Positions 10,517 through 53,524 of a stretch of 64,000 nt of DNA are shown piece after piece. Every line of letters starts with the position of its first letter. Positions within the stretch are counted from its first letter, which is position 1. The DNA lies in the NCBI GenBank assembly GCA_041645165.1, contig JBAZQN010000011.1:1254-65253 (forward strand). Direction: 5' to 3'. Under the pieces are notes generated by a model. The model was not told the origin of the DNA, did no database searches, and saw nothing but the letters and a program-made list of their open reading frames with translations. The stretch comes from Patescibacteria group bacterium. GTDB lineage: Bacteria; Patescibacteriota; Patescibacteriia; 2-02-FULL-49-11. The position numbers and the translations under genes were made by a program.

Positions 10517-10551
10517 CTCACCCCAGCCCTCTCTTATCCTAAGAGAGGGAG
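10514..10551 (+). repeat. HP1 copy 2
   Basis: Same 38-nt element; its TAA is the stop codon of the 9635..10516 gene. Confidence 0.9.
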
Positions 10552-10664: not shown

Positions 10665-10707
10665 CCATTATTCCTCCTCTTAAGGTAAGAGGAGGTAAGG
10701 AGGAGTT

Positions 10708-11079: not shown

Positions 11080-11160
11080 CTCACCCCAGCCCTCTCTTAT
11101 CCTAAGAGAGGGAGCCATTATTTCTCCTCTTAAGGTAAGAGGAGGTAAGGAGGAGTTATG
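11077..11160 (+). repeat. HP1 copy 4 plus HP2-SD-ATG linker, exact duplicate of 10627-10710
   Basis: The 84-nt identity supplies an SD and ATG at 11158, opening a 10-codon mini-ORF that overlaps the large-subunit start at 11178. Confidence 0.9.
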
Positions 11161-11177
11161 ATTTATAACGTTACGTT

Positions 11178-13200: not shown

Positions 13201-14010
13201 TTATATTAATGAAAATTGTAACGAGAGTTTTGTATAATGTATCAAATTTTTAAGCTGCTGAGGATTTAATATTTCGCAGGGCATATCCCAGTGGATGGAA
13301 ATCGTGTCACCCTCCTTTACCTCTTCCATAAGCGAATCATCGTCCAGCCTGCGGGTGATGCGGTAGGGGTTGGGGGAGCCGAGGATTAAACGATTGGGAT
13401 TCCCTTTTAGTTTTTTTTGCCTGGATCCCGCATCAAGTGCGGGATGACAATGAGAAAGGATAAGCGGTTGCCGTGATACTGTGATAAATGGCCCGTCTAT
13501 GAGTATGACCTTCCCCCAGCTCACACGGCATTTGTCCATGCTTTCGAGTGTGTGTTCCGTTTCTGCGTGCCCCGTGCGCTGCCACACATTGAACACATGG
13601 AAATTATGATGAGGGAGCGGGTGATATTGTAGCGTCGCCGTGAGATGGTCGAAATTACGCGCGGTGAGGCGCTTTTTTAATTTCAGCGCGTCAGTGAAAT
13701 GGGTCAGGAGCATTTGTGGGGTGATGGGAGTGAGCAGTTCGTTGCCGAGCCAGTAGGATTCGACGATGCGTTCGTCAAAAGGATCCGCAATGCCGTTCGC
13801 ATGCGCAATCATCTCTAGGTAGGGATAGAGCGTTTTGAATTTATGGAGCAGGTTTTCAAGCCCTTGGCCGCTTTCTTTCGCGGTGAGGTAGGCGAGCACT
13901 TCGCGGTTCGCGTCAGGCCCGCACAGGTGCAGGCGATTGGGGCCGAAAGAATAACGCGCGCAGCGCGACACGCCGTCAACAGGCACAGAGGTGGATAAAG
14001 GCTGAACCAT
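13201..14010 (-). CDS. hypothetical protein (269 aa) carrying an in-frame copy of the ccgcatcaagtgcggg hairpin element
   Basis: Long ORF with no recognised motif. Nucleotides 13420-13453 (ctggatcccgcatcaagtgcgggatgacaatgag) match repeats at 25362 and 25941. Confidence 0.45.
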   Translation of the reverse strand: MVQPLSTSVPVDGVSRCARYSFGPNRLHLCGPDANREVLAYLTAKESGQGLENLLHKFKTLYPYLEMIAHANGIADPFDERIVESYWLGNELLTPITPQMLLTHFTDALKLKKRLTARNFDHLTATLQYHPLPHHNFHVFNVWQRTGHAETEHTLESMDKCRVSWGKVILIDGPFITVSRQPLILSHCHPALDAGSRQKKLKGNPNRLILGSPNPYRITRRLDDDSLMEEVKEGDTISIHWDMPCEILNPQQLKNLIHYTKLSLQFSLI

Positions 14011-14039
14011 ACGCGGAGAAATACGGTTCGTAACTCCTC

Positions 14040-14165
14040 CCCGCCTCCTCTTATCCTAAGAGGAGGAGTCGATTTTGGCCTTCCCTCTTATTTTAAGAGG
14101 GAAGATTTGATGCATCACCCTCTCTTAAAGTAAGAGAGGGATGGGGTGAGTTACGAGAAACGAGG
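14040..14165 (-). repeat. three HP1/HP2-type hairpins in reverse orientation (cctcctcttatcctaagaggagg, ccctcttattttaagaggg, ccctctcttaaagtaagagaggg) plus cgtaactcacccca
   Basis: This is the reverse complement of the ctcaccccag-hairpin unit. The DMT transporter ORF reads through it for about 23 codons. Confidence 0.8.
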
Positions 14166-15049
14166 GGAGTTATGAGTTTTCGCGTGCCCCAGATGAGGAG
14201 AGTGGAACCAAGAACGACCAATACGCCGTTATATACTTGAGGCAGCGTGATTGAATGGGTGATAAATATTCCACTCATGACGTTTGTTATGAGCGTCGCA
14301 GGCACCAGAAGCGCCGTGGCAACGGTGACGGGCAATTTTTTAAGCGCGCTATACCACGTGGTGACATACCCCAAGAGCAGCAGTGCGGTGAGCAAGGTCC
14401 ATCCCCATTGCATAGCATTCAGATGCACTATGGCGCCGCTGCCGTCCTTGAGCGCAAGAATAAGGAAAAGGAAGAGCGATCCTACTGCCATGCGCGCGCC
14501 CGCAACCGTGAGGCTTGAGATATTGGCCAATGCCTTTTTGGCAACGACATTCTCAAGCGCCCAAAATACGGTCGCCATCAGCACCAGCGCCTCACCTATG
14601 TTGAAATTAAATTTAGGAAATCCCAATGCGAGGTTACCGCCGAAAAGCAGAAGGAGGGCGGCTATCTGGGTAATGCCTATATGTTCTTTTAATAGAGGAA
14701 CAGCAAAAATGGCAGCCCAGAGGAAGAGGGTTTTATGGATGAATGCGGCACTGAGGGCGGGTATCATGGAGAGGCCTGTGAAGTAGAGGATAAAGGGCAC
14801 GCATCCGCCGATGACCGCAATGAAGAGCAGTTGGAGCGCTTGAGAAGATTTTAGTGAAATTAATTCTTTCCATCTCTTCGTGAGAAGAATAATTCCTACA
14901 AGCGTCGCGCCCACAAGCGCATTTCGTAGAGTGGTGGAGAGTATGGGATCCTTGAGCGCGGTCACTGCGATCTTTGTTAAAAAATTATTGGTGCCGGAAA
15001 AGAATGCGGTAGCAAGCGCGAGCATGATACCCTTGGTAGCATTGTTCAT
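14093..15049 (-). CDS. DMT-superfamily (EamA-like) transporter, 10 TM
   Basis: Two repeated 5-TM halves with hydrophobicity typical of EamA. The C-terminal ~23 aa are encoded by the repeat cluster. Confidence 0.7.
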   Translation of the reverse strand: MNNATKGIMLALATAFFSGTNNFLTKIAVTALKDPILSTTLRNALVGATLVGIILLTKRWKELISLKSSQALQLLFIAVIGGCVPFILYFTGLSMIPALSAAFIHKTLFLWAAIFAVPLLKEHIGITQIAALLLLFGGNLALGFPKFNFNIGEALVLMATVFWALENVVAKKALANISSLTVAGARMAVGSLFLFLILALKDGSGAIVHLNAMQWGWTLLTALLLLGYVTTWYSALKKLPVTVATALLVPATLITNVMSGIFITHSITLPQVYNGVLVVLGSTLLIWGTRKLITPLVSRNSPHPSLTLREGDASNLPS

Positions 15050-15198
15050 AGAATTGCTAGAGTTTTATCATGAATAAATTTTGATCTTCATTCTTAGGAG
15101 ACCTCCCCTCACGTGTCCCCTCCCCGTGATAAACACGGGGCAGGCTCTTAGTAGGGAGGGGATGGGGTGGTTTCCGTAATTTAAGTATTGACAGTATA

Positions 15199-17661
15199 TC
15201 ACTTTTTTAAATATACAAACACTTTTGTGGAACCAATCGTTGCCGTGTGGTCTGCGTCAAGAGAAGCGCGTGCGGATATCTTTTCTGCATCAAGCCAGTA
15301 AGAGTTAAGGACAAAATATGCGCGCGTGACACCCACAAGATCCATGGCGTTTTCCATTGTTACGCGAGATGCTTTTTGGTACACCATGTTGAGGTAGAAT
15401 TGATAGAGAGGTGAAGAGGTGGGAATGGGGTAATAGAATATAGTTTGACAGTCTGCAGTTTGGCAGTTTTTCAGTTTAAAGTATTTTTTAAAGCCGAATT
15501 CTTGCAGGGCGGCGGCGGCTATGGATTGGTTGGAAAGGACGATATGCGGCTCGTTCCCCGCGTTGGCTTCTATCCAATGCGCCGTGTCTATATCCGTTTG
15601 GGAGACAGAAAAGCCGCGGCTTTTGGAAAAGGCATCGACGCGGGGGTACGTGTAGTAGAAAGAAATGGTGATGAGGCAGGTGAATATTACGAGAGAAAGA
15701 ATTATCGATTTTGTTCCCGTTTGGGGATGGACAATTTTGTTCGGCGTCGCGATCAAGCGACCCTCGCGCCTTTCCGCCTCAAAAATTGCCATCCCCTCAC
15801 TGTCATTAATTATGACAGAATATAGTTCTCTACAGGAAAAGAGGGAGGAGATAGATCGATATAGTGTAATAATAAAGAGGGGAAGTATGGTGAGTCCTAT
15901 AAGGTCGAGGATACGTTCGGTAAACTCTGGGCGCTCATATGCGATCATCGCGGTGAGGGGAAGTGTGCGGATAAAAAGGTAATTGATGAAGAGGACCAGC
16001 GCAGTGAGCCATAAAGCGAGTGGGTATTTGTTTTCTTTGCGACGCAATAGCAGGTACGTCCCTGCCAAGGCGCCGATGAAGAAAAGGAGAGGGAGCGCTC
16101 GCATCCAGAGCTCGCTTGTGTGTGCGAGGGAGAGGAAAGGTAGGTAGTGGGGAATGAGATTGGGAAGTGGGAGCGCGTCAGCATATAAGGGTGCAATGCC
16201 CCCGTAGAGCTTGTTTGCCACCATAATCGCGGCAGGAAGCCCAAGCGAGCTCAATATGCTGATTATAATAGTTAAAACACGGGAGATACGTGGAGAAGTA
16301 TTATTCTGCACGGTTATATATGAAAGGAGCATGAGGGCAGGAATACCGGTGATGGGATGGATAAATATTATGCAAAACGCAATACCCCAGAGCAAGGATA
16401 GTGGTAAGTGGCGATGAAGGCATGATAAGGAAAGCAAAACGAGGATGAGATAAAAAAGGTTCGCAAGCGATTGCGGCACCGTGGCGATAAAAAGCGAGGG
16501 GGGGATGATGAGGAGCGAAAGAATTGTAATGAGTAAAAGATGTGTTTTTTGAAAATATTTTTTCAGTGTGAAAATTCCAATAATGGGAATGAGAATGCTT
16601 GCGAGGACAGGCAGAAGCCAGAGGTCAATGAGCGGAAGGGGAATCAGCATCACTTTTGAGAGAAAGACTACAAGGACATATTGCCCAAGATATGACAAAG
16701 GAGGCGGGGTGAGCAAGCCAGTTTCGAAGATAATTTTTTCAGTCGCACGGTGGATAAACGGATCAAAGCCATATCCGATGCGGTAGATGAGGAGCGCGAG
16801 AGAGAGGGTGAAGAAAAAATGAAATAATAGGAGTATTAGTTTGATCGAAGAAAAGGACGCGGGATCCGCTCGGGATGGTTCTCGGCGAACACGCGTCCCC
16901 GCCTCCTGCCCCGCCATGCGGGGCTCCGCCTCACCAGTCCCACTCCCGATAGTATCGGGAGACCATGCTGGGGCTGGCTCCGGAGGGTTCGCCAGAGAAC
17001 CAATCCCTCGCTGAGAGGTCAAGAACGGAAACTTCCTAGATGCTTTTATCCCCGACCAAGCCTCTTCTTTACGGGAGAAAAGAAATAAGAGAATAAAGGT
17101 AGCAAGTGCATAGAGATAAAGGAGCGAGTGGGGAAGGACTTCCCATGGTGTGCGTATTGAGGCGTCGGTGCGATGGTCGAGAATGAGGTTTATGGATATA
17201 GCGAAGAGGGTGAGATATGCAAAGGTAAGGAGTGTGGGGACAAGATATTTATTGAGCGGCAGTCGAGTATGTATTGGCTGTGATTCCGGTTTAGTATCAG
17301 CAGGGGGCTGGCGCTTGGTGCGAAGAAATAGGATTACATAACCGGCAAGAGGGATGAAGAACGTTATTGCGGTAATAGCGTACTCATTGAATGCCGCGAG
17401 GCGAAAATATGTGGATCCAGCGAGAATAACGAGCACAAGAACCGAGAGGAAGCCAAGAGTGTATTGTTCAATCCTTTCGCGGGAAGGCGCAAAAATGTTG
17501 CCCCAAAGCACGCACGAAACAACGAGCCAGAGGATGCTAAATGTAATCCCAATAATGAGAGAGTGGAAAAAGAAAAGGTTGAGCGCGAGTCCTGCAGGGA
17601 GCAGAAGCAAAATGGCGATTTTCGTAGCACGAGATTTTGTTAATATGTGGTAAGGGCGCAT
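15199..17661 (-). CDS. large polytopic membrane protein (possible GT-C-type glycosyltransferase) with two in-frame repeat insertions
   Basis: 820 aa, more than 12 predicted TM helices, soluble C-terminal domain. Repeat S copy 2 (15723-15804) encodes …INDSEGMAIFEAERREGRLIATPNKIVHPQTG…. A GC-rich composite palindrome (about 16878-17001) encodes a Pro/Gly-rich loop. Confidence 0.5.
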   Translation of the reverse strand: MRPYHILTKSRATKIAILLLLPAGLALNLFFFHSLIIGITFSILWLVVSCVLWGNIFAPSRERIEQYTLGFLSVLVLVILAGSTYFRLAAFNEYAITAITFFIPLAGYVILFLRTKRQPPADTKPESQPIHTRLPLNKYLVPTLLTFAYLTLFAISINLILDHRTDASIRTPWEVLPHSLLYLYALATFILLFLFSRKEEAWSGIKASRKFPFLTSQRGIGSLANPPEPAPAWSPDTIGSGTGEAEPRMAGQEAGTRVRREPSRADPASFSSIKLILLLFHFFFTLSLALLIYRIGYGFDPFIHRATEKIIFETGLLTPPPLSYLGQYVLVVFLSKVMLIPLPLIDLWLLPVLASILIPIIGIFTLKKYFQKTHLLLITILSLLIIPPSLFIATVPQSLANLFYLILVLLSLSCLHRHLPLSLLWGIAFCIIFIHPITGIPALMLLSYITVQNNTSPRISRVLTIIISILSSLGLPAAIMVANKLYGGIAPLYADALPLPNLIPHYLPFLSLAHTSELWMRALPLLFFIGALAGTYLLLRRKENKYPLALWLTALVLFINYLFIRTLPLTAMIAYERPEFTERILDLIGLTILPLFIITLYRSISSLFSCRELYSVIINDSEGMAIFEAERREGRLIATPNKIVHPQTGTKSIILSLVIFTCLITISFYYTYPRVDAFSKSRGFSVSQTDIDTAHWIEANAGNEPHIVLSNQSIAAAALQEFGFKKYFKLKNCQTADCQTIFYYPIPTSSPLYQFYLNMVYQKASRVTMENAMDLVGVTRAYFVLNSYWLDAEKISARASLDADHTATIGSTKVFVYLKK
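15723..15804 (+). repeat. repeat family S copy 2, in-frame inside the 15199..17661 gene
   Basis: The outer stem ggggatgg…ccatcccc covaries relative to the other copies. Confidence 0.8.
16878..17001. repeat. GC-rich composite palindrome (ggttctcggcgaac … ccccgccatgcgggg … ctcccgatagtatcgggag … gttcgccagagaacc) inside the coding sequence
   Basis: Nested perfect palindromes. GC far above the host gene. It encodes a low-complexity PPEPAPAWSPDTIGSGTGEAEP segment. Confidence 0.55.
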
Positions 17662-17867
17662 AAAAAATTACTATTTCAAGGTAATCATCATAGAATTGTC
17701 ACATTACGGTATTAATCTCATTATACATTAAAGTGGTGAATATGTTATTTTACAGCGCCTAAATGTAGCAGTACTGTGCATTCATGCAAATAGGTTTATT
17801 GATAATAAAATGAGCCCTCATAAAGGGCACATGGTGTTTAATTGTGAAATATACTAATTTGCCAACC

Positions 17868-18038
17868 CAATTCCGATTGTCATTCCAGACCGAGATCTGG
17901 AATCCAGACATAAAACAAACAAAAAGATCAATTTTCTTTTGGTTTTCCCCGATCTCGGTCGAGGACGGCGTCTGGATTCCCGCTGGAGCTTGCCCCGTAC
18001 CTTGATACGGGGCGGGAATGACGATGGAATCGGAATTG
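17868..18038 (+). repeat. MITE-B copy 1 (~170 bp, long internal inverted repeats gtcattccagac…gtctggattcc…gggaatgac)
   Basis: About 90% identical, in reverse orientation, to 53324-53497. Confidence 0.85.
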
Positions 18039-18064
18039 AATAGCAATTGAGTATAAATGATTAA

Positions 18065-18715
18065 TTATTTTATTAAAAAAACATAGTAGCCGCTTGTTTG
18101 TTTTGACTTTTGTTTTTTTAACAGGATATCGGTAGTTCTTGCGAGCGTATTGAGGAGAGTAAAGCGGCCCAAGGGGCTCAAGTGTACCCATGTCTCGAGC
18201 GGCCCTCTTACTTTTTGTATTTCTAGAGAAGAGAAATTGCGGCTTAAATACTTTAGTGAATCTTCCGTATATCTCCAAAAGTCGCCATAATATCCCGGCT
18301 GCGCGTGGTAATAGTAGAGAAATGGGACATAGAGGAAGCAATAGCCGCCTTTTTTCAGCACGCGGTGCATTTCTTCAAAAGCCTTGAACGGGTTTTCAAT
18401 GTGTTCCAAAACTGCGATACAAATAATCGCATCGGTCGATGCGTCGCCCAGTGGCATGCGATGGATGTCCCCGATAATGTCAGGGTGGTAGTCCGGCACG
18501 GGATCAAGGATTTTATAATTTACCGCATTGAGATATTGTTTTATCCACGCGCGGTGCGGGTCATACCGGTTTCCTTTTGTGTCAGAAATTCTCAATCCTC
18601 CGCCAATGTCAATAATATCCTTTTTTTGCTCAAAGATTTGTCTTATCTTTTCGTAGAAGAAAGTATCCCAGGGAGTCATACGAAGAGCATTACCAAGAGG
18701 CGCATGTATCGCCAA
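18065..18715 (-). CDS. class I SAM-dependent methyltransferase
   Basis: Motif I DIGGG, and LEHIENPFKAFEEMHRVLKKGG (Methyltransf_11-like). Confidence 0.75.
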   Translation of the reverse strand: MAIHAPLGNALRMTPWDTFFYEKIRQIFEQKKDIIDIGGGLRISDTKGNRYDPHRAWIKQYLNAVNYKILDPVPDYHPDIIGDIHRMPLGDASTDAIICIAVLEHIENPFKAFEEMHRVLKKGGYCFLYVPFLYYYHAQPGYYGDFWRYTEDSLKYLSRNFSSLEIQKVRGPLETWVHLSPLGRFTLLNTLARTTDILLKKQKSKQTSGYYVFLIK

Positions 18716-18784
18716 AGAGCCGCACTTGAACCAGAACGGTTGCTGTTGTTATTAATTGACCCCATGGCTATAGCATATTGAAAT

Positions 18785-19738
18785 TTATTTTGAAATTTTT
18801 CGCTGTCGGGTTCTATTTTTAAGGTATCGCTCGATTGCCTCTTTTGAAGTTAACCAATTCCTGCCTTCTTTGTATGCTTCGAGTTTTCCTTGTCTCGCAA
18901 GTAAGTTTAGATATTTGGCGGAAAATGGGGTATTTTTAGATATCTCTGCCAATGTTACGAACTTTTCTTGTTTTTGTGTTGCCGGAGTTAAAGTTTTTAG
19001 ATAAATATCAAGGGAGCGCTCTATGGATTGAGCGATAAATTTCACCAATGGTTCATATTTTCCACTGTCTGCCTTGTCCAACACATCGTAATATTTTTTG
19101 TGGTCATTTTTCAAAATAATAACCAGCGGATAGCCAGTTTTCATCAGCAATACATTCATGGCTAAACGTGCGGTCCTGCCATTGCCGTCAAAAAATGGAT
19201 GAATATGTGTTAGTTTATGATGCAGTAAAGCTGAAAGCTCAATGATATTAATCTTATTTTTTTGTGAATTAAGCCAGTTGATTAAATCTCTCATTTTTTG
19301 GGGCACTTGCAATGCGTCGGGTGGTGTATGTTTCGCTCCGCCAATAATTACGTTAGCGTTCCTGTATTTCCCGGCCCACTCTTTGTCAGTTTCCCGTATA
19401 ATAATTTGGTGTAAATTTCGTATGAGCATTTCAGAGATGGTGTGTTTTTTATTTTTATCTATTAAGTCATACAGATATTCCAGCGCGGCATGATGGTCTT
19501 TTGCTTCCAAATGGTCTTTTAAAGGTTTTCCCTTTACTGTTATGCCTTCGTTAATAACTAAAAATGTCTCTTTTAAAGTTAAGGAATTGCCTTCAATGGC
19601 ATTTGAGTTGTAGGTCATTTCTATTTGAAATTTTTCCCGCAGTTTTTGTACCGCAGATTTTGGTAGGGGACGAAGTTTATTTAGTTTAATGAGTTTTTCT
19701 TCCAGTCGGGTTTTTATAATTGGCGATAGATAAGTCAT
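18785..19738 (-). CDS. Fic-family protein (AMPylation/Doc fold)
   Basis: Canonical Fic motif HPFFDGNGRTARL. 317 aa with a C-terminal HTH-like tail. Confidence 0.85.
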   Translation of the reverse strand: MTYLSPIIKTRLEEKLIKLNKLRPLPKSAVQKLREKFQIEMTYNSNAIEGNSLTLKETFLVINEGITVKGKPLKDHLEAKDHHAALEYLYDLIDKNKKHTISEMLIRNLHQIIIRETDKEWAGKYRNANVIIGGAKHTPPDALQVPQKMRDLINWLNSQKNKINIIELSALLHHKLTHIHPFFDGNGRTARLAMNVLLMKTGYPLVIILKNDHKKYYDVLDKADSGKYEPLVKFIAQSIERSLDIYLKTLTPATQKQEKFVTLAEISKNTPFSAKYLNLLARQGKLEAYKEGRNWLTSKEAIERYLKNRTRQRKISK

Positions 19739-19924
19739 AGGATAATACTTAATATGGTTTAGTTAATTATTTAGAGTATACCATATTAAGGAATTGGGTC
19801 AATTTCAGATATAAATTTGTCGTTTTTGGAGCTCCGCATCAAGTGCGGGGTAAACTCCGCGGAAAAAACACTATATTTCCCCTCTAAAAATAAAAAAGAA
19901 AAAATTTTATAAAAAATAATATTT

Positions 19925-20040
19925 CACATAACATTTGCGTATATCTGATGTTTTGTGGAGCGTAGCGGAGCAAAATATGGGTGTAGGCTCACGAAAGAGC
20001 CGTAGCCAGATATACGTTGTTAGCTGATGTATATGTTTTT
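19925..20040. repeat. attC-like palindrome A (gcgtatatctg … cagatatacg, then tGTTAGCTgatgtatatg)
   Basis: Its core gcgtagc…aaatatgggtg is shared with element C at 21588. Confidence 0.45.
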
Positions 20041-20095
20041 CCTTGTCGTTTATCCACCTCCGCCGAATACTCTGCAGTTCCGCTCGAGGAGGGGT

Positions 20096-20413
20096 TCATT
20101 TTTTGATTTTGTTGAACAATGCGGCAAACAACCAAACAGCAAGAATCGTCACAATGTTCCAGATAACTAAACCTGAAATAAAGTAGCCAAAGCTAAGAAA
20201 ATCTGATTTAAAAGATACATCGGTATGCAGAGAAAATTTCATAAATAGTTCCCTGCTTGGTGGATAGATTGCTACGCCGACATAACAGATTGTATAAACT
20301 ATACTTACCCACGCTGAGGCGATTTTTATCAAATGTTTTGAATTTATCATATTTTTAAAATTAATTACCATGTAAAATAATAGTTTTTTAATTTTGTTCG
20401 CGTTTGCTGGCAA
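20096..20413 (-). CDS. hypothetical small membrane protein
   Basis: 105 aa, three hydrophobic helices, AT-rich. Overlaps the next ORF by 26 nt. Confidence 0.45.
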   Translation of the reverse strand: MPANANKIKKLLFYMVINFKNMINSKHLIKIASAWVSIVYTICYVGVAIYPPSRELFMKFSLHTDVSFKSDFLSFGYFISGLVIWNIVTILAVWLFAALFNKIKK

Positions 20414-20966
20414 GATTAATGATGCAAACGTAGAAAATGTAAGACAGAATAGTAGCGGGAATATTGATAATGTTATAGACCAAATTATTTAGCTCATTTG
20501 GATTCAAATAATGCAACCTTTGAATTATTGGTGATGTTTCTCCTGTAAGATTTACAAGTTTGAGAGCTAATAGGATAATCACACCAATTAGCACAATCAG
20601 GATAAATTTTATTATCCATCTATAAACAAAAAGGTTGATAATATTTTTAAGTGTAAGAGATCTATGAAATAATTTCAGGATCAGTTTAGTGGCCAATATA
20701 ACTATAGTGACAATAACAAGAACACTTAGTAGCATCAACAATATAGCAACAACACCACCAAATAGTTTTGTCCCTAAACCAATGTGTGCATACTGAATAT
20801 TAAATTCTGCTATTTGGTTTAGTAGTTTGCTATAACCCGTAAACAAATTTAGTAGTATGGTTATCAAATAAAAGCCGACCAACCAGAGAATTAGTTTGAT
20901 AGATATTTTATTGTCGGGCAGTTGGTGAATAAATTGTTTAGGATGGAAGAGTAGCTTTATGTTCAT
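20388..20966 (-). CDS. hypothetical polytopic membrane protein
   Basis: 192 aa, five or six TM helices, AT-rich. Confidence 0.45.
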   Translation of the reverse strand: MNIKLLFHPKQFIHQLPDNKISIKLILWLVGFYLITILLNLFTGYSKLLNQIAEFNIQYAHIGLGTKLFGGVVAILLMLLSVLVIVTIVILATKLILKLFHRSLTLKNIINLFVYRWIIKFILIVLIGVIILLALKLVNLTGETSPIIQRLHYLNPNELNNLVYNIINIPATILSYIFYVCIINLASKREQN

Positions 20967-21050
20967 ATTTTTTTCGGTCTTTAAAAAATTAAAAAGGGCT
21001 CTTATAATAAAAAAGAAAAAATTTAATAAATGAAAACCGAGTAATATGTC

Positions 21051-21127
21051 GCCTAACGTTTCGGGATCAAGCGAAGTATTTTCGCTAGAAAATATTTTGC
21101 TTATCCCGTGTTATCGGATGTAATTTT
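21051..21127. repeat. attC-like palindrome B (GCCTAAC-gtttcgggat … atcccgtg-GTTATCG-gatgtaatttt)
   Basis: 77 bp. Follows the TAA stop of the 21133..21561 ORF by 6 nt on the coding strand. Confidence 0.5.
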
Positions 21128-21132
21128 ATTTT

Positions 21133-21561
21133 TTAACGAATAAATTTACAATAAGACTTAGAGCAATCAACGTTTGTCAATTTATTTGGATAATTAGAAT
21201 ATTCTTTTTTTACGTAATTAAAATAACGATTTAGTATGGTACGTCTTGCTTCTAATGCATTTTTTGAATAATCTGGATTATGTGGTTTGCCGGGATTATT
21301 TGTATCTTCTTCGTATATTAAAATATATTCATCATCATTAATTAATCCTAATTTTTTTGCATTAGAGAAGAAGGTTGGGCATCTAGATGTGTTATGATCA
21401 AAACAACTGTCATAAGAATCATGTTCACTGGCAATTAAAAAATCAACTTTTTTCTTGTCTTGCTCAGACAATTGTTCATAATTGGAATAAGATAAGTTAT
21501 TAGCAGAGCATCCTGATAGCAAGATTGTCACTAAAATAAAAATGAGTTGTTTGTTAAGCAT
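21133..21561 (-). CDS. hypothetical lipoprotein
   Basis: Signal peptide plus lipobox LLSGC. 142 aa. Confidence 0.5.
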   Translation of the reverse strand: MLNKQLIFILVTILLSGCSANNLSYSNYEQLSEQDKKKVDFLIASEHDSYDSCFDHNTSRCPTFFSNAKKLGLINDDEYILIYEEDTNNPGKPHNPDYSKNALEARRTILNRYFNYVKKEYSNYPNKLTNVDCSKSYCKFIR

Positions 21562-21587
21562 AAGTAAAAATTAGGATTAAATAATAT

Positions 21588-21681
21588 TATTTCCGATAAC
21601 GTCCGCGTGTATGCGATGTTTGCGTAGCAAATATGGGTGGAGCGACCGTAGGGAGCGTAACCGCATACACGCTGTTAGGCG
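21588..21681. repeat. attC-like palindrome C (cGATAAC-gtccgcgtgtatgcg … cgcatacacgc-tGTTAGGC)
   Basis: 94 bp. On the coding strand the TAA stop of the 21675..22493 ORF lies inside the GCCTAAC box. Confidence 0.55.
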
Positions 21682-22493
21682 ATGTAAATTTTAGACTTTT
21701 TTAATCTCGCAACAAATTCATCTTTTGTCATCACCACTTGTCTTACCTCTGGCTTTTCTCCCGTTGTCAAATATTTTTCCAGAGATCTCTTGTTGTATTG
21801 TAATGCTAAGTGTTGAACGGCTACAACGTCGCTATCGTCTGGCAAAGTATCTTCTATTGAAATTTCATCACCCAAGAGCAGTCTGGCTTTCCCTTCCATT
21901 TTTTTATTAAGTAGCCAAGATTTCATCATAATTCTGTCTGCCGTGATTTCTCCCGTTTCTAATTTAGCACCTATCGTTTGAAAGCCATCTATGATTTTAG
22001 AAATTAATTCTGCGCTTTTCACTCCCGTTGGTCTAATATGTAATGAAATTTCATCATCACCAGCTTTTTTGTATGCGATAACATCATTGACATGAACCAT
22101 GCCAGATCCTTCCTCAACCTCATCCGCTTTTCTGTTCCATTCAGCGAAAAATAGATTGGCAATTGGTGAAGAGGCTAATCTGTTGGCGAAGTTATCTCTG
22201 GAAAAATTATTTTCTTGACATTCCTGCAGGGCGGAATTAATTATTTGATATAATTCTTGTTTTGCTTCGGAATGTTGAATCTCTTCGCCTGAGCTACCCA
22301 ATCTAGAAACATAAAGATCAGCCATTCTTTCTGTAATTGCGCTTTTGTTTTCAGCGCCCTCGGCATGGAGTAAGTTTTGATATAGTTCAAATCCACCAGC
22401 AAATCTAATAAACGCAGGGTTTGATAAAACCATCTCCTTTGTTTTTTCTATTCCTTCTTGATGAATTTGTTGCGGTTGTTCGTTTTCTCCCAT
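21675..22493 (-). CDS. hypothetical protein (272 aa)
   Basis: Long AT-rich ORF with no recognised motif. Its stop is embedded in the repeat box. Confidence 0.45.
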   Translation of the reverse strand: MGENEQPQQIHQEGIEKTKEMVLSNPAFIRFAGGFELYQNLLHAEGAENKSAITERMADLYVSRLGSSGEEIQHSEAKQELYQIINSALQECQENNFSRDNFANRLASSPIANLFFAEWNRKADEVEEGSGMVHVNDVIAYKKAGDDEISLHIRPTGVKSAELISKIIDGFQTIGAKLETGEITADRIMMKSWLLNKKMEGKARLLLGDEISIEDTLPDDSDVVAVQHLALQYNKRSLEKYLTTGEKPEVRQVVMTKDEFVARLKKSKIYIA

Positions 22494-22504
22494 ATTTAAA
22501 AAAG

Positions 22505-22722
22505 TCTAAAATTTATTTCGCCTAACGTATCTGTGTATGAGAAGTCCCGCGCCATTGTAAAACGATTAATTCGTGGAACTTCTTACACAGTTATTTTATC
22601 AAATTAAATGTGGTATTAGCAATAGCGGGATTTGGGTGAAAAAAATATGGCGACCTTAAAATTTATATAAATGCCATATTTTTTGAACCTCATACACAGT
22701 GTTGTGCGATGTAAATTTTTTA
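22505..22722. repeat. attC-like palindrome D (aaaatttatttc-GCCTAAC-gtatctgtgtatgag … ctcatacacag-tGTTGTGC-gatgtaaatttt)
   Basis: About 215 bp with an unusually long central region. Its end motifs match B and C and the attI-like site. Confidence 0.45.
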
Positions 22723-22878
22723 TCCTCGTTTTTAATGGTATAAGCTTTATCTGTTCTAAAAGAAAATTTGATTTTTTGTCTTGGCTCAAAAAAGAGGGGT
22801 TAGGGGTGAATTTTTTGAGCCAAGACACATTAAAGAATTTTTATTTCAACTGCTTTTAGGATGTAACGATAACACAAC

Positions 22879-23430
22879 TTAGTCTTTAAAATCAAATTCA
22901 ATTTGGCTATCGCCGGGACGGATATATTGGGGATGAGGCCCGGTAAGATCAAAGCTTGCTTCGCAATATACTGTGGAGTTTTTTTCTTGAGATAAACGAG
23001 GAAAAGTAGCTGTTTGGACATGAGAGACAACAACATGCCACTGACTGTATAGTATATTTTGGTTTAGTAGTTTTTTTACCTTGCCCAAGCGTTCAAAATG
23101 CATGTTAACTATTGTTCCGTCGATAGTAATTGGCTGTTGAAATTTCATATTAAACTTGGTGGTATAAAATCTATTCTCTAATCCTGCTTTAGCAATATGT
23201 TTTAAAAATGCCTCACCTATATAACCCTGTAATTTATAACCACCGACATGGTCATCCTTATCTGGATGCATATGAGTTTTAATTTGTTCATCAAACTCAC
23301 TAAACTCAGATGAAGGTAAAACTTCGCTGGCCCGATTAAACGCAAGATCTACCTTCTTCTGATGTTCAGGGGTTTTGAGTACCTGGTCCCTAGTTGAACC
23401 GTAAAAATTTTCAGTATATTCTTTTGTCAT
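22879..23430 (-). CDS. hypothetical protein (183 aa)
   Basis: AT-rich ORF. The HMHPDKDDH segment is only loosely MBL-like, so no call is made. Confidence 0.4.
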   Translation of the reverse strand: MTKEYTENFYGSTRDQVLKTPEHQKKVDLAFNRASEVLPSSEFSEFDEQIKTHMHPDKDDHVGGYKLQGYIGEAFLKHIAKAGLENRFYTTKFNMKFQQPITIDGTIVNMHFERLGKVKKLLNQNILYSQWHVVVSHVQTATFPRLSQEKNSTVYCEASFDLTGPHPQYIRPGDSQIEFDFKD

Positions 23431-23450
23431 ATAAGAAAAATTACTATTTT

Positions 23451-24320
23451 TTAATTTTTACGAAATAAATTATGCCGAAATTCCGTACAAAGAGGCAGTT
23501 TAGTTTTATTAATTAAGTCAAGATTATCAGCTGTACAAATTCTGGCCTTAATACCGAATTTATGAAAGGCATTGATTAACCTTTGAAACGCTAGAATTCT
23601 TTTTCTAAATGGTAAAGTATAACCAAGTTTGGTTGTTACTTGTCTGACGGCAGTCATTTTGCTAATGGCTTTCAAAATCAACTTATCATTTAAATCAACG
23701 ATCCGTTGTTTCTGTGGCTCCGGTAATACGCCGGTACCAATGATGCATCGTTTTACTCCAATCCCGCTTAATACCCGTGGAAGATCTTCAATACTTTCAT
23801 TTTTTTCATAAATATCAAACCACGGCATCACCACGACGATAACTGGTACGCCGCCTCTAATTAATTTTCTTATTATTTCCAGTCTTTTGATAATTGGAGC
23901 CGCACCGGGCTCTAAAAGAGAAAGAAGTCTCTGGTTTAGACTCGGTAATGATATTTGAACAACAACGCGATGTTTATTTGTTATTAACAATTTGATAGAT
24001 TTATTAGGAATCACTTGTTTAGTGACTATTAATGGCACAAAATCTTCTTTTCTTTTCCAAACATGTTCTAACAGATAATGGGTCAGGTCGCAATTGGCGG
24101 GCAAAAAACAGTCAGCGACGGCGCTAAAGTAAGTTCCCTTAAACTTCTGTAAATTTTTCAAAACCTCTTTCCGGCCAGAGACGATTATTTGATCACTATC
24201 AAATTGTTTCCGGTGAAGATCACAATACAAACAGGGTTTTGGACAACGTTTCCCGAAGACCACCACTGGTACAGCCTGACAAGGATACATTGGTTTCACT
24301 AATATAATATCGTTTGTCAT
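23451..24320 (-). CDS. radical SAM domain protein (SplB-like CxxxCxxC)
   Basis: Motif CPKPCLYC near the N-terminus. 289 aa, AT-rich. Confidence 0.55.
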   Translation of the reverse strand: MTNDIILVKPMYPCQAVPVVVFGKRCPKPCLYCDLHRKQFDSDQIIVSGRKEVLKNLQKFKGTYFSAVADCFLPANCDLTHYLLEHVWKRKEDFVPLIVTKQVIPNKSIKLLITNKHRVVVQISLPSLNQRLLSLLEPGAAPIIKRLEIIRKLIRGGVPVIVVVMPWFDIYEKNESIEDLPRVLSGIGVKRCIIGTGVLPEPQKQRIVDLNDKLILKAISKMTAVRQVTTKLGYTLPFRKRILAFQRLINAFHKFGIKARICTADNLDLINKTKLPLCTEFRHNLFRKN

Positions 24321-24435
24321 ACTATAATTTGTAAAATTAAGTCTTTAATTTGTTCCCCTCTTAAATAAAATAAAAAATCAAATTTTCTTCGTGGTTAATG
24401 GATTAAAACTTGGAATTAATAGAAAAGATAAAAAA

Positions 24436-24475
24436 TTTATTTCGTACAACTGGTTAATATGTGGAAAGATATATG
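24436..24475. promoter_or_regulatory. attI-like half-site (aaaatttatttcGTACAACtggttaat) between the recombinase gene and the first cassette
   Basis: On the cassette strand it reads GTTGTAC-gaaataaatttt, the same extended 3' box as the attC-like elements (GTTAGGC-gaaataaatttt), with no partner 5' box. Confidence 0.4.
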
Positions 24476-24494
24476 ATTAGTATACCAAATTTGT

Positions 24495-25346
24495 ATGATA
24501 TGTGGAGTGTATGATATTCTAATTGTAGATTCTATGGCTAATCTACTGGATATTTTAACTCGGGAGATGGTATTGCGCAATTATAGCCGGAAAACCATTG
24601 CGGCGTATACCAGCGCGGTCAAAGGCCTGTTTACTTTTTACAGAAAACCATTGCGTGATTTGTCATTGGAAGAGATTAAGGAATACTTGTACATCAAGCA
24701 GCAAAAGAAATTTTCCAGCCAGACGATCGCGCTCGCGGCCAATGCCATTAATTTCCTCTATACTCAGATTTACAAGAGACCTAACTTTGAAAAAATTCGG
24801 CATCCCAAACGAAGCCAGAGGTTGCCGGAAGTATTGAGCCGCATTGAAATTGAAAAAATATTGGAGCAGATTGAGAACATCAAGCATCGTTTGCTTATCG
24901 CCTGCGCCTATGGAGCGGGATTGCGGGTAAGCGAGGTGGTGCGGCTGCGCGTACAGGATATTGATATGGCAGATAAAACGATCACGGTCAGACAGGGCAA
25001 AGGCAGAAAAGACCGGCTGACCGTGTTATCAGGAAAGATCGTTAGTGACTTGGAAAAGTTCCTTGTTGGCAAAGAAGGACGAGATTGGGTGTTTGAGAGC
25101 GAACGCGGCGGACGGCTGACCGAAGCCACGGCGCAAAAAGTATTTTATGCCGCTCTTAAGAGAGCGGGGATTAAAAAGCATGCGACATTCCATTCTCTGC
25201 GGCATAGTTTTGCCACGCACCTTTTGGAAAACGGGGTAGACGTGCGTTATGTGCAGGAACTTTTGGGGCATGCGAATATCAGGACCACGCAGATTTACAC
25301 CAAAGTGACGAATCCAAGTCTGAAGAATATAAGAAGCCCGTTGTGA
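24495..25346 (+). CDS. tyrosine site-specific recombinase (XerC/XerD/integrase family)
   Basis: Catalytic residues R (AGLRVSE), K (KGRKDR), HSLRHSF, GHANIRTTQIY with the nucleophile Tyr. The likely start is the ATG at 24534 (MANLLDILT…), giving about 271 aa, which is too short for a canonical IntI. Confidence 0.85.
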   Translation: MICGVYDILIVDSMANLLDILTREMVLRNYSRKTIAAYTSAVKGLFTFYRKPLRDLSLEEIKEYLYIKQQKKFSSQTIALAANAINFLYTQIYKRPNFEKIRHPKRSQRLPEVLSRIEIEKILEQIENIKHRLLIACAYGAGLRVSEVVRLRVQDIDMADKTITVRQGKGRKDRLTVLSGKIVSDLEKFLVGKEGRDWVFESERGGRLTEATAQKVFYAALKRAGIKKHATFHSLRHSFATHLLENGVDVRYVQELLGHANIRTTQIYTKVTNPSLKNIRSPL

Positions 25347-25361
25347 TCGTGAAATTTCATT

Positions 25362-25403
25362 GTTTGTTTCTGGATCCCGCATCACGTGCGGGATGACATG
25401 AAA
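25362..25403 (+). repeat. hairpin-element family H (ttgtttctggatcccgcatcacgtgcgggatgaca), copy at the recombinase 3' end
   Basis: Perfect palindrome atcccgcatca(a/c)gtgcgggat. Other copies lie at 13420 (in-frame), 25941 (in-frame) and a partial one at 19828. Confidence 0.85.
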
Positions 25404-25410
25404 CGCATCA

Positions 25411-27114
25411 TTGGCACGCATTATGAAGCGATATTATTTCATTATTTTGCTTTGCGGCATAGGGGCTCTCTTTTTCCTGCTCTCGATCTTAAGCGCTCCC
25501 GAGCGGAAAGGGGATCCGATGTTTGATTCTCCCGACGAGACTGCGAATTATTTTTGGGCCCAAAGGGTGGCGAAGGGCGAGCCGCTGTGGTACAGCGAGC
25601 CGCTGGAAGTTGTGGGGAATTCTCTTCTCAAACCCCGGAGCATGAATGTGATCGGCACAAGGGTAGTGCCGGGGAGTTTCCTCGGCCTTCCATTGTTATA
25701 TGGTTACATGGCTCAATGGTTTGGCATATGGTTAATCCCATATCTCACGCCGTTATTTGCTTCGCTCGCAGTAATTGCGTTTGGGTTATTGATGAGAAGG
25801 TTATTCGGCGCTTCTATGGGGTTGTTGAGCGCAGCGCTGCTCGCTTTTTTGCCACCATGGTGGTATTACGCGAGCAGGGGGATGTATCATAACGTGCTGT
25901 TTGTGAGTTTGGTGATCATCGGCATGAGTTTGCTGATGTGTGCTTGTTTCTGGATCCCAAGCATCTCGGTGCGGGATGACAATAAAGCGAGGGTATTTAT
26001 ACGACAAGCGATAAGGCTGATTGCGTATGGCATCGCAGGTTTATGCATTGGATTTTCTCTCGTGGTACGTTCATCGGAATTGGTTTGGGTAGCCTTCCTG
26101 ACTGTTTTTTGTTTCATATCTGGGTGGCGGAGGGTAAGAGTATCGGGCGCGTTGTTATTTATAGCGTGCGGCCTATTCGCTTTTTTGCCGTTGTTTACCA
26201 CTAACATTGAATTATACGACGCGCCGATATCCATCGGGTATCGCGGCGTACAAGGGATGGAGTTGGGTGAGTTTATAACCAAATTGCCTGATGCGCAATT
26301 CCGCAATCTTTTCTTTGCGCCATTCGGTATTAATTTTTCACAAACGGTATTGGCGATGCAGCAATTCCTGGTCATCTATTATTGGTGGTGGTGCGCGTTG
26401 GGTGCGGCAGGCATACTCCTTATGGTTATCAGGTTTTTTAGCACTTCTCGAGATGAAAAAATGAAATGGGCAGGGTATAGCGCGTCTGCCGCGGCAGTCA
26501 CCATCTTGCTGGTGATCTATTATGGCTCGTGGGCGTTTTCAGACCGTATTGACCGGAACACGATATCGCTCAACACGTCTTTTTTCCGTTATTGGCTGCC
26601 TATTTATATGTTGGGAATACCCTTCGTGGCATATGCAATTCTTGCATTGAGCAGGTTATTGCGCCGATCGCGTATGCGTAATGCGGCGGCGTGCATGGCA
26701 GTGTGCATGCTGGCATTTTTCTCAGCGCGTTTGGCGCTTTTAGATACTGATGAAAGCCTTATGTCAGTGCGCATGAGGCTCTCTGCAGCTCATTTTGAGC
26801 TTCAAGCAGCGAAGAGCCATATGCAACCACAGGCAGTCATTATAATTTTCCCGCAAGCGGATAAAATACTTTTCCCTGCATACCGGAGGCTCATTACCGC
26901 AATGGTGACGCCTGATGATTTCCGTGCGGCAAGGAGATTGGCGGAATTGCTGCCGGTGTATTACTATACGTATGCGCCTCCGGAATATATTGGGCAAATA
27001 ATTACACCGCTATTCAAGAAATATAATCTGCAAATCGTAAACGGTAAGAAAGTGTATGCGAATCACTGGGTTTGGCAGATATTGCCGCTCACGGAAGCTT
27101 TAGTTCGTTTTTAA
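25411..27114 (+). CDS. polytopic membrane protein, GT-C-like (ArnT/PMT-type) glycosyltransferase candidate, with an in-frame family-H insertion
   Basis: 567 aa, more than 10 TM helices, acidic DSPDE motif in the first loop. Nucleotides 25941-25988 (tgtttctggatccc…gcgggatgac) encode CFWIPSISVRDDNK. Confidence 0.5.
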   Translation: MARIMKRYYFIILLCGIGALFFLLSILSAPERKGDPMFDSPDETANYFWAQRVAKGEPLWYSEPLEVVGNSLLKPRSMNVIGTRVVPGSFLGLPLLYGYMAQWFGIWLIPYLTPLFASLAVIAFGLLMRRLFGASMGLLSAALLAFLPPWWYYASRGMYHNVLFVSLVIIGMSLLMCACFWIPSISVRDDNKARVFIRQAIRLIAYGIAGLCIGFSLVVRSSELVWVAFLTVFCFISGWRRVRVSGALLFIACGLFAFLPLFTTNIELYDAPISIGYRGVQGMELGEFITKLPDAQFRNLFFAPFGINFSQTVLAMQQFLVIYYWWWCALGAAGILLMVIRFFSTSRDEKMKWAGYSASAAAVTILLVIYYGSWAFSDRIDRNTISLNTSFFRYWLPIYMLGIPFVAYAILALSRLLRRSRMRNAAACMAVCMLAFFSARLALLDTDESLMSVRMRLSAAHFELQAAKSHMQPQAVIIIFPQADKILFPAYRRLITAMVTPDDFRAARRLAELLPVYYYTYAPPEYIGQIITPLFKKYNLQIVNGKKVYANHWVWQILPLTEALVRF

Positions 27115-27188
27115 ATGTCGGAGACCCCAAGTAGTAGAAACTTCGTTTCACTACGGGGCAGGCAAGCTCCGACGCTACAATTATAAAT

Positions 27189-28391
27189 ATGTTCATACCC
27201 CCTCGGCATATATTAGAAAAGTACGCTAAAGTCCTTATACGTTTCGCGCTCAATTCAGGCAAAGGCATCAAGAAGGGGGATGTTGTGCTTTTGCAGGTTT
27301 CGGAATCAGCCAAGCCTCTCTATGTGGCGTTGAGGAATGAGGTGCTGCGTGCGGGAGGAACCTTTATTTCACAGTATGCGCCGGATGACGTTGCCCGCGA
27401 TTATTATAAGCTCGCATCTCCGGAGCAGTTGCGCGCGTTTCCCACACAATACTACCGCGGGCTTATAGACCAGATAGACCATTCGGTATTCGTGGCGGCG
27501 GAGAGCGATATGCATGAGTTGGAAGGCATACCTCCGAAAAAAATAATGCTGCGCCATCTTTCTCTGAAACCCTATCAGCTCTGGCGGGAAGACAAGGAGA
27601 ATAAAGGCAGATTTACCTGGACCATCGGCCTTTACGGCACCGAGGCAATGGCGCGAGAGGCGCATATGAGCACAAAGGAATACTGGCGACAGATTATCAA
27701 AGCCTGTTTCCTCGATTATGCGGATCCTGTGGCGCAATGGAAAAAGGTATTTTTGAAGGTGGAAAAGACGCAACGCGCGCTCAATCGTTTGCGCATTGAA
27801 TCGCTTGAGGTGAAAGGCGAAGGAGTTGATTTAAGCGTCCGTCTGGGGAAGGGGAGACGGTGGCTTGGAGGGAGCGGAAGGAATATTCCCAGCTTTGAAT
27901 TGTTCATTTCACCCGATTGGAGAGGGGTTGAGGGCACCATACGGTTTAATCAGCCATTGTACCGCTATGGGAACCTCATGGAAGGCGTTTCTTTGGTTTT
28001 CAAAAATGGCGAAGTGGTGAGTGCGCGTGCGCAGAAGAATGGAAAATTGTTGAGGGAAATGATCCGGACTGACCGCGGCGCGAAAAGGGTAGGCGAGTTT
28101 TCGCTAACCGACCGCAGGATGTCCCGCATCACAAAATTTATGGCAGAGACATTGTATGACGAGAACAGGGGCGGCAGGTATGGCAATATGCACATTGCGC
28201 TCGGGAAGGCATATAAGGATTCCTATCCCGGCAATGCGGCCAATCTTTCGAAAGCCGCGTGGCGGGCGCTCGGATATAACGAATCAGCGATTCATACCGA
28301 TGTGGTGAGCACGACGAAAAGAGTGGTGACTGCGGTGCTCAAAGGCGGGAAGAAGAAAGTGATTTATAAGGACGGGGAATTTTTAATGTAA
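27189..28391 (+). CDS. M29-family aminopeptidase (AmpS/PepS-like)
   Basis: 400 aa, matching M29 aminopeptidases in length and in the pattern of conserved acidic and His residues in the C-terminal half. This is a pattern-level call. Confidence 0.5.
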   Translation: MFIPPRHILEKYAKVLIRFALNSGKGIKKGDVVLLQVSESAKPLYVALRNEVLRAGGTFISQYAPDDVARDYYKLASPEQLRAFPTQYYRGLIDQIDHSVFVAAESDMHELEGIPPKKIMLRHLSLKPYQLWREDKENKGRFTWTIGLYGTEAMAREAHMSTKEYWRQIIKACFLDYADPVAQWKKVFLKVEKTQRALNRLRIESLEVKGEGVDLSVRLGKGRRWLGGSGRNIPSFELFISPDWRGVEGTIRFNQPLYRYGNLMEGVSLVFKNGEVVSARAQKNGKLLREMIRTDRGAKRVGEFSLTDRRMSRITKFMAETLYDENRGGRYGNMHIALGKAYKDSYPGNAANLSKAAWRALGYNESAIHTDVVSTTKRVVTAVLKGGKKKVIYKDGEFLM

Positions 28392-53298: not shown

Positions 53299-53323
53299 TA
53301 TTTTGTATAGTGCATTGCTATTC

Positions 53324-53497
53324 AGATTCCGATTTTCAACGTCATTCCCGCCCCGTATCGCGGTACGGGGCAAGCTCCGGCGGGAATCCAGACGCCGTCC
53401 TCGACCGAGATCGGGGAAAATCAAAAGAAAACACCGATTTTTTGTTTGTTTTTTGTCTGGATTCCAGATCAGGTCTGGAATGACATTATCGGAATTA
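53324..53497 (-). repeat. MITE-B copy 2, between hrcA and grpE
   Basis: Reverse complement of 17868-18038 at about 90% identity. Confidence 0.85.
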
Positions 53498-53524
53498 GGT
53501 TAACAATTTAGTATAATAAAAATT

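Follow-up and report, generated by a model that had tools for sequence, protein, structure and literature searches.

A Hairpin Repeat of a Patescibacteria Contig as a Probable Local Form of the Ssn-Related Motif, with Copies In-Frame in Genes

The Locus and Its Hairpin Family

The DNA considered here, a 64-kb stretch referred to below as the window, comprises 64.0 of the 66.4 kb of its Patescibacteria (CPR) contig (ENA ERZ27249422). It contains a DUF6390 gene, an island of low-GC DNA, a tyrosine recombinase gene and, directly downstream of the latter, a gene for a GT-C-like membrane protein. In and around these genes lie copies of a short hairpin repeat, family H, whose common unit consists of a T-rich tract, CTGGAT, a 6-nt arm, TCA[AC]G, a second 6-nt arm and ATGACA. 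On the minus strand, the family reads TGTCATCCCGCACTTGATGCGGGATCCAG. As argued below, family H probably represents, in this genome, the Ssn-related motif (SRM), whose founding members are the dRS3/NTS repeats of Neisseria.

An earlier, sequence-only reading of the window had reported hairpin copies at 13420-13453 and 25362-25403, and both were recovered. Two exact matches to the 21-mer ATCCCGCATCA[AC]GTGCGGGAT were found on the + strand, at 13425-13445 and 25374-25394, against zero expected in shuffled sequence. These intact copies, H1 and H2 (Table 1), form the 8-bp stem with a 5-nt loop that had been described, and their DNA folds at −10.0 kcal/mol (z −4.2) and −12.4 kcal/mol (z −5.3), respectively. 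The spacer that holds H2 measures 76 nt, from the stop codon of the Xer-like recombinase gene (25346) to the ATG of the membrane-protein gene (25423). A third copy, announced at 25941-25988, is real as well, but only in part as described: H3 keeps the flanks TTGTTTCTGGATCCC and GTGCGGGATGACA, as in H2, while its centre is 3 nt longer and folding is lost (−3.8 kcal/mol, z −0.5).

Two partial copies had also been proposed. The one at 19828-19862 is a real, decayed copy, in which the 16-mer CCGCATCAAGTGCGGG is identical to H1 (our own calculation puts the number expected by chance in the window at about 3e-5); it folds weakly (−8.0 kcal/mol, z −2.2) and fails the SRM search sequence given below. 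The other, at 18727-18742, has about 10 nt in common with H (CCGCACTTGA), which is the level of chance, as all sub-words of the element together would be expected to give about two matches of this kind. In all four short H-type copies the GTCAT strand is the minus strand, the plus strand being the leading one by GC skew; at n = 4 this bias is not significant. A lower stem TGTC/GACA was considered as a family feature and rejected: it is present in several local copies and is not general in 136 copies from other genomes. In the literature searched, there was no literal match to the hairpin H sequence itself and nothing relevant on palindromic elements in Patescibacteria.

Table 1. Hairpin copies and composite elements of the window.
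Feature	Position	Strand	Context and sequence
H1, intact SRM hairpin	13421..13449	-	in-frame in DUF6390 gene (13201-14010, minus); TGTCATCCCGCACTTGATGCGGGATCCAG
H2, intact SRM hairpin	25370..25398	-	recombinase/membrane-gene spacer; TGTCATCCCGCACGTGATGCGGGATCCAG
H3, decayed SRM copy	25950..25981	-	in-frame in membrane-protein gene (25423-27114, +)
Decayed SRM-like copy	19828..19862	-	inside low-GC island, spacer upstream of Fic gene; minus strand GTTTACCCCGCACTTGATGCGGAGCTCC
Composite copy A	17835..18064	-	inverted SRM-type hairpin pair, GTCAT ends outward, no gene
Copy A, long-loop hairpin	17972-18022	-	CGTCATTCCCGC...GCGGGAATCCAG
Copy A, short hairpin	17879-17907	+	stem ATTCCAGA
Composite copy B	53300..53520	+	SRM-type hairpins 53341-53391(+) and 53457-53484(-), no gene

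Probable Assignment to the Ssn-Related Motif

The SRM is described by the search sequence HGTCWYN(0-2)YYVSBRHN(0-5)WNVSBRGN(0-2)RNCYNB (Chenal et al., Nat Commun 2025, PMC11893778), and the same work extended dRS3 to the oriented NTS, CGTCATTCCCGCGMAVGCGGGAATCYRG. SsnA, a 94-aa single-domain GIY-YIG protein that belongs to cd10448, binds the hairpin, which arises once the GTCAT-bearing strand is single-stranded, and nicks a few nucleotides 5′ of it, and ssnA genes are typically flanked by the motif (PMC11893778). Cleavage affects the GTCAT-bearing strand and only in single-stranded form; double-stranded DNA, RNA and the complementary strand are left uncut (PMC11893778).

In the window, this search sequence matches exactly over the coordinates of H1 and H2, on the minus strand, which makes two matches as opposed to 0.18 expected from Markov-1 simulations. 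Family H is a hairpin-forming semi-palindrome whose flanks, CTGGAT and ATGACA, are kept in the window copies and in the 136 copies from other genomes, and this gives the element an orientation. The stems covary (CCCGCA, TCCAGA, CCCAGA), with flanks and loop fixed. H is thus probably a member of the SRM/NTS/dRS3 family.

The hairpin had earlier been called REP-like. This description holds in so far as H is a dispersed hairpin repeat that conserves its structure, and fails in so far as the family is SRM/NTS/dRS3 and not a RAYT-type REP. A REP/RAYT-type or IS200/IS605-derived (PATE) hairpin, moved by a Y1 HUH transposase, would have the general anatomy seen in H, in which short hairpins with oriented flanks are dispersed, clustered and paired in inverted orientation, and the analogy with REPs was drawn by the authors of the SRM study themselves (PMC11893778). 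However, neither a Y1, RAYT or IS200-like transposase nor any other was found among the 30 window ORFs scanned with Pfam, which covered the 9.6-30.2 kb region plus ten unclear ORFs outside it, the remaining long ORFs being housekeeping genes by eye. The conserved flank, moreover, is GTCAT/ATCCAG, with no GTAG of REPs, and the gene that the hairpins bracket in other genomes encodes a GIY-YIG nuclease. An origin of this kind is very unlikely.

Another possibility is that the hairpin acts at the RNA level, as an intrinsic terminator or as a regulatory or stabilising structure. H2 does lie just downstream of a gene, and gene-end hairpins are common in the window, with 29 terminator-like sites against 15 expected. 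Nevertheless, no H copy is terminator-like in either orientation, a T-tract preceding the stem on one strand and an A-tract following it on the other, and the terminator reading was rejected on this ground. Two copies lie in the middle of an ORF, in opposite orientations relative to the gene; Rfam, applied to the entire window at gathering thresholds, reported tRNA only and no match to H; and Ssn is inactive on RNA (PMC11893778). An RNA-level element is very improbable indeed.

Coding Copies as In-Frame Insertions

The coding copies are in-frame, as the sequence-only reading had stated. H1 encodes residues 188-197 of the DUF6390 protein, CHPALDAGSR, and its A-rich tail (13406-13420) encodes QKKLK. 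H3 encodes CFWIPSISVRDDNK in the GT-C-like membrane protein, in the context (CF)WIPSISVRDD(NK), the gene reading the complement of the GTCAT strand; H1 and H3 have opposite orientations relative to their host genes. By our own translation, the element is open in four of its six reading frames, and in-frame survival is therefore unsurprising.

A match of the coding copies to conserved segments of orthologous proteins would have counted against the sequence-only reading; the orthologues indicate insertions instead. The H1 hairpin together with its A-tract encodes SHCHPALDAGSRQKKLKGNP. The DUF6390 protein has 20 extra residues at this place, and its orthologues mostly measure 243 aa and are without the H1 segment. 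The segment is also present in an 88%-identical orthologue and, in a diverged form, in a 69%-identical one, and other DUF6390 lineages carry unrelated insertions at the same point. The AlphaFold model of the protein (pTM 0.80) has two strands predicted with confidence and, between them, the insertion as a loop of low confidence, with pLDDT below 50 at residues 193-200. In the membrane protein, CFWIPSISVRDDNK sits after a transmembrane helix, in a variable loop. Only the closest relatives have this segment (CFWIPQHVRDDNK, CFWIPHQVRDDNK, CFWIPSISVRNDG), and it is missing from orthologues at ≤50% identity; one orthologue has VIPAPYAATGQAPAGIQ at the same loop, which corresponds to an in-frame long-loop hairpin in the other orientation. 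As a separate observation, the DUF6390 orthologues P0002 and P0003 carry a second insertion, AFIRVNIRDYPRR, in another loop, which gives the impression of being the translation of a different repeat family.

Comparison of related loci (designated L and a number) adds to this picture. The 29-nt hairpin of H1 is identical in L001-L006, and between the window and L001 it is 29/29 identical within a gene that is otherwise 89% identical, for which our own calculation gives a probability of about 0.03 under neutrality. At the same site, L007 has GTCATCCCAGACTCGATCTAGGATCC, with both arms changed. At the site orthologous to H3, the hairpin is intact in L130 (4377-4404) and L131 (2091-2118) and decayed in L129. 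These comparisons show that both coding copies are old, inherited, in-frame insertions in variable loops and not conserved protein segments, and that they appear to be partly maintained by compensatory stem changes.

The phenomenon extends beyond the two genes of the window. In loci from Patescibacteria, 5 of the 26 H copies lie within long open frames, and Pfam confirms three such hosts, MutS (within domain III), MiaA and FemAB, each with the identical hairpin in-frame. Hairpins of this type can thus live within essential genes as in-frame peptides, the examples being DUF6390, the GT-C-like membrane protein, MutS, MiaA and FemAB. For annotation, this means that peptides such as CHPALDAGS, WIPHQVRDD and VIPA...AGIQ within otherwise conserved proteins are to be read as repeat insertions.

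Paired arrangements were also observed, SRMs of other Patescibacteria often coming in adjacent pairs. Within the reading frames of MiaA (HCHPALDAGSRFNCIQMQPGSPIESGMT) and FemAB (CHSGLDPESRSGSRIECGMT), two different SRMs adjoin each other back to back (L039, 6212-7207; L122, 4769-5959). Several intergenic inverted SRM pairs, 20-50 nt apart, occur in L138 (16919-18757).

Composite Elements Without a Gene

A structure-aware scan (GTCAT-stem-loop-stem-ATCCAG) found six hairpins in the window, among them four that the sequence-only reading had missed and that belong to two composite elements, A and B (Table 1). The composites are 90% identical and represent a repeat of about 210 nt; copy A has the outer inverted repeats TATACTnAATTGC...AATTCCGAT, and the hairpins of copy B fold at −8.6 kcal/mol (z −3.7) and −16.8 kcal/mol (z −2.6). 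The short hairpin of each composite (17879-17907 and 53457-53484) has a variant stem, ATTCCAGA/TCTGGAAT as opposed to ATCCCGCA/TGCGGGAT in family H, with three positions altered and fully compensated on both arms. Each variant-stem hairpin has an inverted partner, a long-loop hairpin that reads CGTCATTCCCGC...GCGGGAATCCAG and contains a nested hairpin in its loop. The long-loop copies (17972-18022 and 53341-53391) start with ATTCCC and end with GGGAAT, and their arms are 33 nt apart, which exceeds the loop limit of the SRM.

Copy A is an insertion polymorphism, because the relative L001 has just 26 nt between the same two genes that flank it. The layout of the composites is that of the SRM-ssn-SRM units of other genomes, minus the gene. 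On this comparison, copy A behaves as a putative miniature, non-autonomous derivative that has moved.

The Low-GC Island and the Neighbouring Recombinase

The limits of the island follow from three relatives. Synteny between the window and L001 ends at 18722, at the start of a methyltransferase gene; in L130, the same methyltransferase gene is joined to the recombinase by 2.5 kb of different genes; and L129 becomes similar to the window again from 24448 onwards. Therefore, the island extends from 18723 to 24447. The sequence-only reading had placed hairpin H at both ends of the island and had suggested it as an att-like sequence, and neither proposal survives this delimitation. H2 lies about 920 nt beyond the right border, across the conserved recombinase gene, the decayed copy at 19828 lies 1.1 kb inside the left one, and no intact H copy is present at either border (18722/18723 and ~24447/24448). 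The island borders carry no SRM. A false lead is thereby removed, in that the low-GC island is not bounded by hairpin H.

The recombinase itself passes the XerA-type model NF040815, and its gene immediately precedes the membrane-protein gene in each of L129, L130 and L131, the three relatives examined, where the adjacent DNA, as far as visible, differs from the window island. The recombinase is a resident Xer-like gene and not island cargo.

These observations bear directly on the possibility that the hairpin is the att or core site at which the adjacent tyrosine recombinase integrates or excises the island. Its 21-bp palindrome resembles the core site of a tyrosine recombinase if taken as two 7-bp arms around a 7-nt spacer, H2 lies 24 nt past the recombinase stop codon, and the decayed copy is in the island near its left end. 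Still, an att or dif reading was already contradicted by synteny with relatives: the XerA-type gene keeps its place beside the membrane-protein gene in the relatives L129, L130 and L131, the borders are without an intact copy and H2 is 920 nt outside, and in L130 the same flanking genes enclose other cargo, the only SRM of L130 lying in the membrane-protein gene. The hairpin is, furthermore, multi-copy in more than 100 unrelated genomes, and other copies in the window are in genes 12 kb away. An att function is extremely improbable.

The spacer between the recombinase and membrane-protein genes is of interest in its own right. In L129 it contains a long-loop SRM in the same orientation as H2, and in L130 and L131 unrelated hairpins. 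From these comparisons, the spacer remains a likely hot spot for hairpin elements, and the earlier suggestion of a preferred insertion site is loosely supported to this extent, by a different hairpin in each relative.

In Neisseria, dRS3 is an integration target of filamentous prophages and of IS110-type elements. The hairpins might thus be mainly landing pads for other mobile elements, which would explain their position near variable DNA; the known role of dRS3, the different hairpin of each relative in the spacer and the hairpin nested in the long-form loop all speak in favour. Yet no mobile element of the window lies in or directly beside an SRM, and the island borders are without one. As the principal explanation, a landing-pad role is unlikely, and it is in any case compatible with H being an SRM and not an alternative to it.

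The island has a repeat of its own. Its genes are all on the minus strand, divergent from the XerA/integron-integrase-like recombinase gene (24495-25346). A motif of about 40 nt (ACCnCATACAC...GTTAGGCGATGTAAATTTT) occurs five times at gene boundaries, at 20004-20037, 21659-21704 and 22686-22736 and, as inverted copies, at 22496-22526 and 24415-24450, so that inverted copies enclose a single gene or a pair of genes. The sequences GTTAGGC and GCCTAAC agree with GTTRRRY/RYYYAAC, the core consensus of integron attC sites. The layout may be called integron-like, without being established as an integron.

Distribution Across Phyla and Probable Link to a GIY-YIG Nuclease

A cross-genome scan with GGATCCCGCA-N(3-9)-TGCGGGATGA, one genome per species, found at least 120 stretches, with 136 copies among the matches listed. 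Among these are Coxiellaceae, Legionellaceae, Rickettsia, Chloroflexi, Bacteroidaceae isolates and Rhodothermales, together with isolates of both Pseudovibrio and Roseibium, as well as Myxococcales, Omnitrophota, one Planctomycete, Saccharibacteria, Moraniibacteria and many Patescibacteria; the loop is TCAAG in 100 of the 136 copies. Adjacent hairpins in other genomes have the same flanks and other stems (e.g., gtcattcccgcgaaagcgggaatccag), and the loci from Patescibacteria carry other, non-H SRMs at 0.093 per kb, compared with about 0.003 expected. Phages were considered as a vector, and this is not obvious, the hairpin being present in only six viral stretches.

Loci with the identical hairpin that were examined also contain GIY-YIG ORFs of about 95 aa (PF01541). 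In L045, L056, L116 (a Rickettsia endosymbiont) and L121, inverted SRMs with their GTCAT ends outward bracket the GIY-YIG gene, as they do, with extra copies, in L104. The family of Ssn-like proteins comprises at least 7213 clusters (E ≤ 1e-10) and includes a protein annotated as Patescibacteria. In a 603-kb contig from Patescibacteria (L138), an SRM(+) at 9970-9997 is followed by a GIY-YIG gene at 10001-10318 and an SRM(-) at 10290-10319, with further inverted SRM pairs elsewhere. The Ssn/SRM system is now placed in Patescibacteria, and an identical 25-nt hairpin is common to very distant phyla.

Several points weigh against the assignment of H to this system. SRM copies are few in the 64-kb window, two by the strict and six by the relaxed definition, and the variant stems at 17.9 and 53.4 kb miss the published search sequence at one position. 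No GIY-YIG gene was found in the window, either by regular expression or with a hidden Markov model from Ssn-like sequences. The Ssn-like proteins match PF01541 only, and their likeness to SsnA/cd10448 is at that level; a PDB search with them returned only UPF0213 structures, with weak E-values. The GIY-YIG protein of L129, at the syntenic spot, is a different small type (35% identity over 65 aa) with a different flanking hairpin.

The L129 locus merits description by itself. At 3054-3364, the genes for the membrane protein and for peptidase M29 are separated by a GIY-YIG gene of 89 aa, which is flanked by 20-bp inverted repeats, CCCGGTAGTGAAACTTTAAA / TTTAAAGTTCTACTACCGGG. At the equivalent spot of the window (27114-27189), there is a gene-less hairpin made of both arms (CCCCAAGTAGTAGAAACTTCGTTTCACTACGGGG), which belongs to a hairpin family other than H. 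The two spacers thus differ by the presence or absence of a nuclease gene in the loop of a hairpin; this comparison is a direct reading of the arms, as the MAFFT alignment of the L129 flanks with the window spacer was uninformative.

Other Repeats in the Window

Beyond family H, the window is rich in repeats. A DUF559 (Vsr-like endonuclease) gene at 10708-11079 stands between two direct repeats of 143 nt with 99% identity (10569-10711, 11019-11161) and is also flanked by hairpin copies TAACTCACCCCAGCCCTCTCTTATCCTAAGAGAGGG; the segment 10569-11161 is missing in L001, which has 86 nt there compared with 594. Other hairpin families are found at gene ends (e.g., CCTCCTCTTAAGGTAAGAGGAGG and CCCCGTGATAAACACGGGGCAGGCTC), with sites such as 9557-9609, 10514-10566, 14031-14083, 15116-15162, 48212-48248 and 63819-63865. 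An 83-nt repeat containing GACAATTTTGTTCGGCGTCGCGATC...CGCCTTTCCGCCTCAAAAATTGC is present in four copies of 61-84% identity (3348-3430, 15721-15803, 34152-34234 and 57760-57842) and also matches L129 at 10603-10682.

Proposed Mechanism and Implications

The following sequence of events can be envisaged. When the GTCAT strand becomes single-stranded, the hairpin would form, and Ssn would bind it and nick a few nucleotides 5′ of it. An Ssn protein encoded elsewhere in the genome may recognise the H copies of the window, and SRMs may multiply by a single-strand route like that of IS200/IS605, driven by the SRM-ssn-SRM unit. In a lineage of the competent type, SRMs could modulate incoming or replicating single-stranded DNA. 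The short H copies of the window are old and vertically inherited; two of them landed in-frame in tolerant loops, where they survive as additional peptide segments, and one lies in the hot-spot spacer. Since Patescibacteria rely on DNA uptake, the proposed connection with incoming single-stranded DNA is open to test, and the presence/absence cases offer material on the mobility of SRM-ssn-SRM units.

A broader and clearly more tentative proposal, which may well prove wrong, is that SRMs are the general class behind the "palindromic elements in proteins", having entered genes in-frame repeatedly, in Patescibacteria and in Rickettsia, and being kept there as DNA hairpins. The solo hairpin, the nested-loop hairpin and the inverted pair, either gene-less or with a GIY-YIG gene, could form one series of a single-strand transposon with hairpin arms as its ends. 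The idea that they are kept as DNA hairpins is based on an orthologous coding site whose stem changes are compensatory and on the 29/29 identity within an 89%-identical gene. If it is true, selection or gene conversion acts on DNA structure inside genes, and the comparisons of copy A with L001 and of the L129 GIY-YIG gene between hairpin arms with the gene-less hairpin of the window would be the first comparative evidence that such units move.

Comparison with Known Systems

Family H resembles REP/BIME elements in that both are dispersed hairpins with oriented flanks, often in inverted pairs, around a gene for a small single-domain nuclease. The partner, however, is a GIY-YIG and not a Y1 HUH protein, the conserved flank differs, and no RAYT was found.

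A second comparison concerns the Rickettsia palindromic elements (RPE), the closest precedent for the in-frame habit, reportedly described by Ogata and colleagues in 2000, which are said to measure about 100-150 bp and to lie in-frame in coding genes, at tolerant surface positions. Copies of H are likewise in-frame at tolerated loops, absent from most or from the more distant orthologues and inherited with the gene, and Rickettsia loci (L025, L073, L116) carry both the H hairpin and an Ssn-like gene. In contrast, the inserted unit here has about 30-60 nt, and the likeness to RPE is one of description. No paper linking GIY-YIG proteins with Rickettsia palindromic elements was found in the literature searched.

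With dRS3 and NIME, family H shares a 20-bp palindromic core between GTC and CCAG, as well as inverted hairpin pairs that enclose short spacer units, and the long-loop copies of the window read ATTCCC...GGGAAT, as in dRS3. On the other hand, H itself is ATCCCGCA-N5-TGCGGGAT and not ATTCCC-N8-GGGAAT, which places it outside the dRS3 definition, and no link of H to prophage integration was seen in the window.

The closest resemblance in organisation is to SRM/NTS, as H has the oriented flanks GTCAT ... ATCCAG around a hairpin, is multi-copy and fits the degenerate motif. It differs in its stem and loop, CCCGCA and CTTGA compared with TCCCGCG and MAV in Neisseria, and in its host, Patescibacteria being a phylum unmentioned in the SRM study (PMC11893778). 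The two also differ in genomic position: in N. meningitidis, only 2% of NTS are inside genes (PMC11893778), whereas of the four short H-type copies, H1 (intact) and H3 (decayed) are in-frame in genes. The present findings extend the published picture in three respects, namely a host among the Patescibacteria, repeated in-frame insertions with signs of hairpin maintenance, and hints that SRM-flanked units move.

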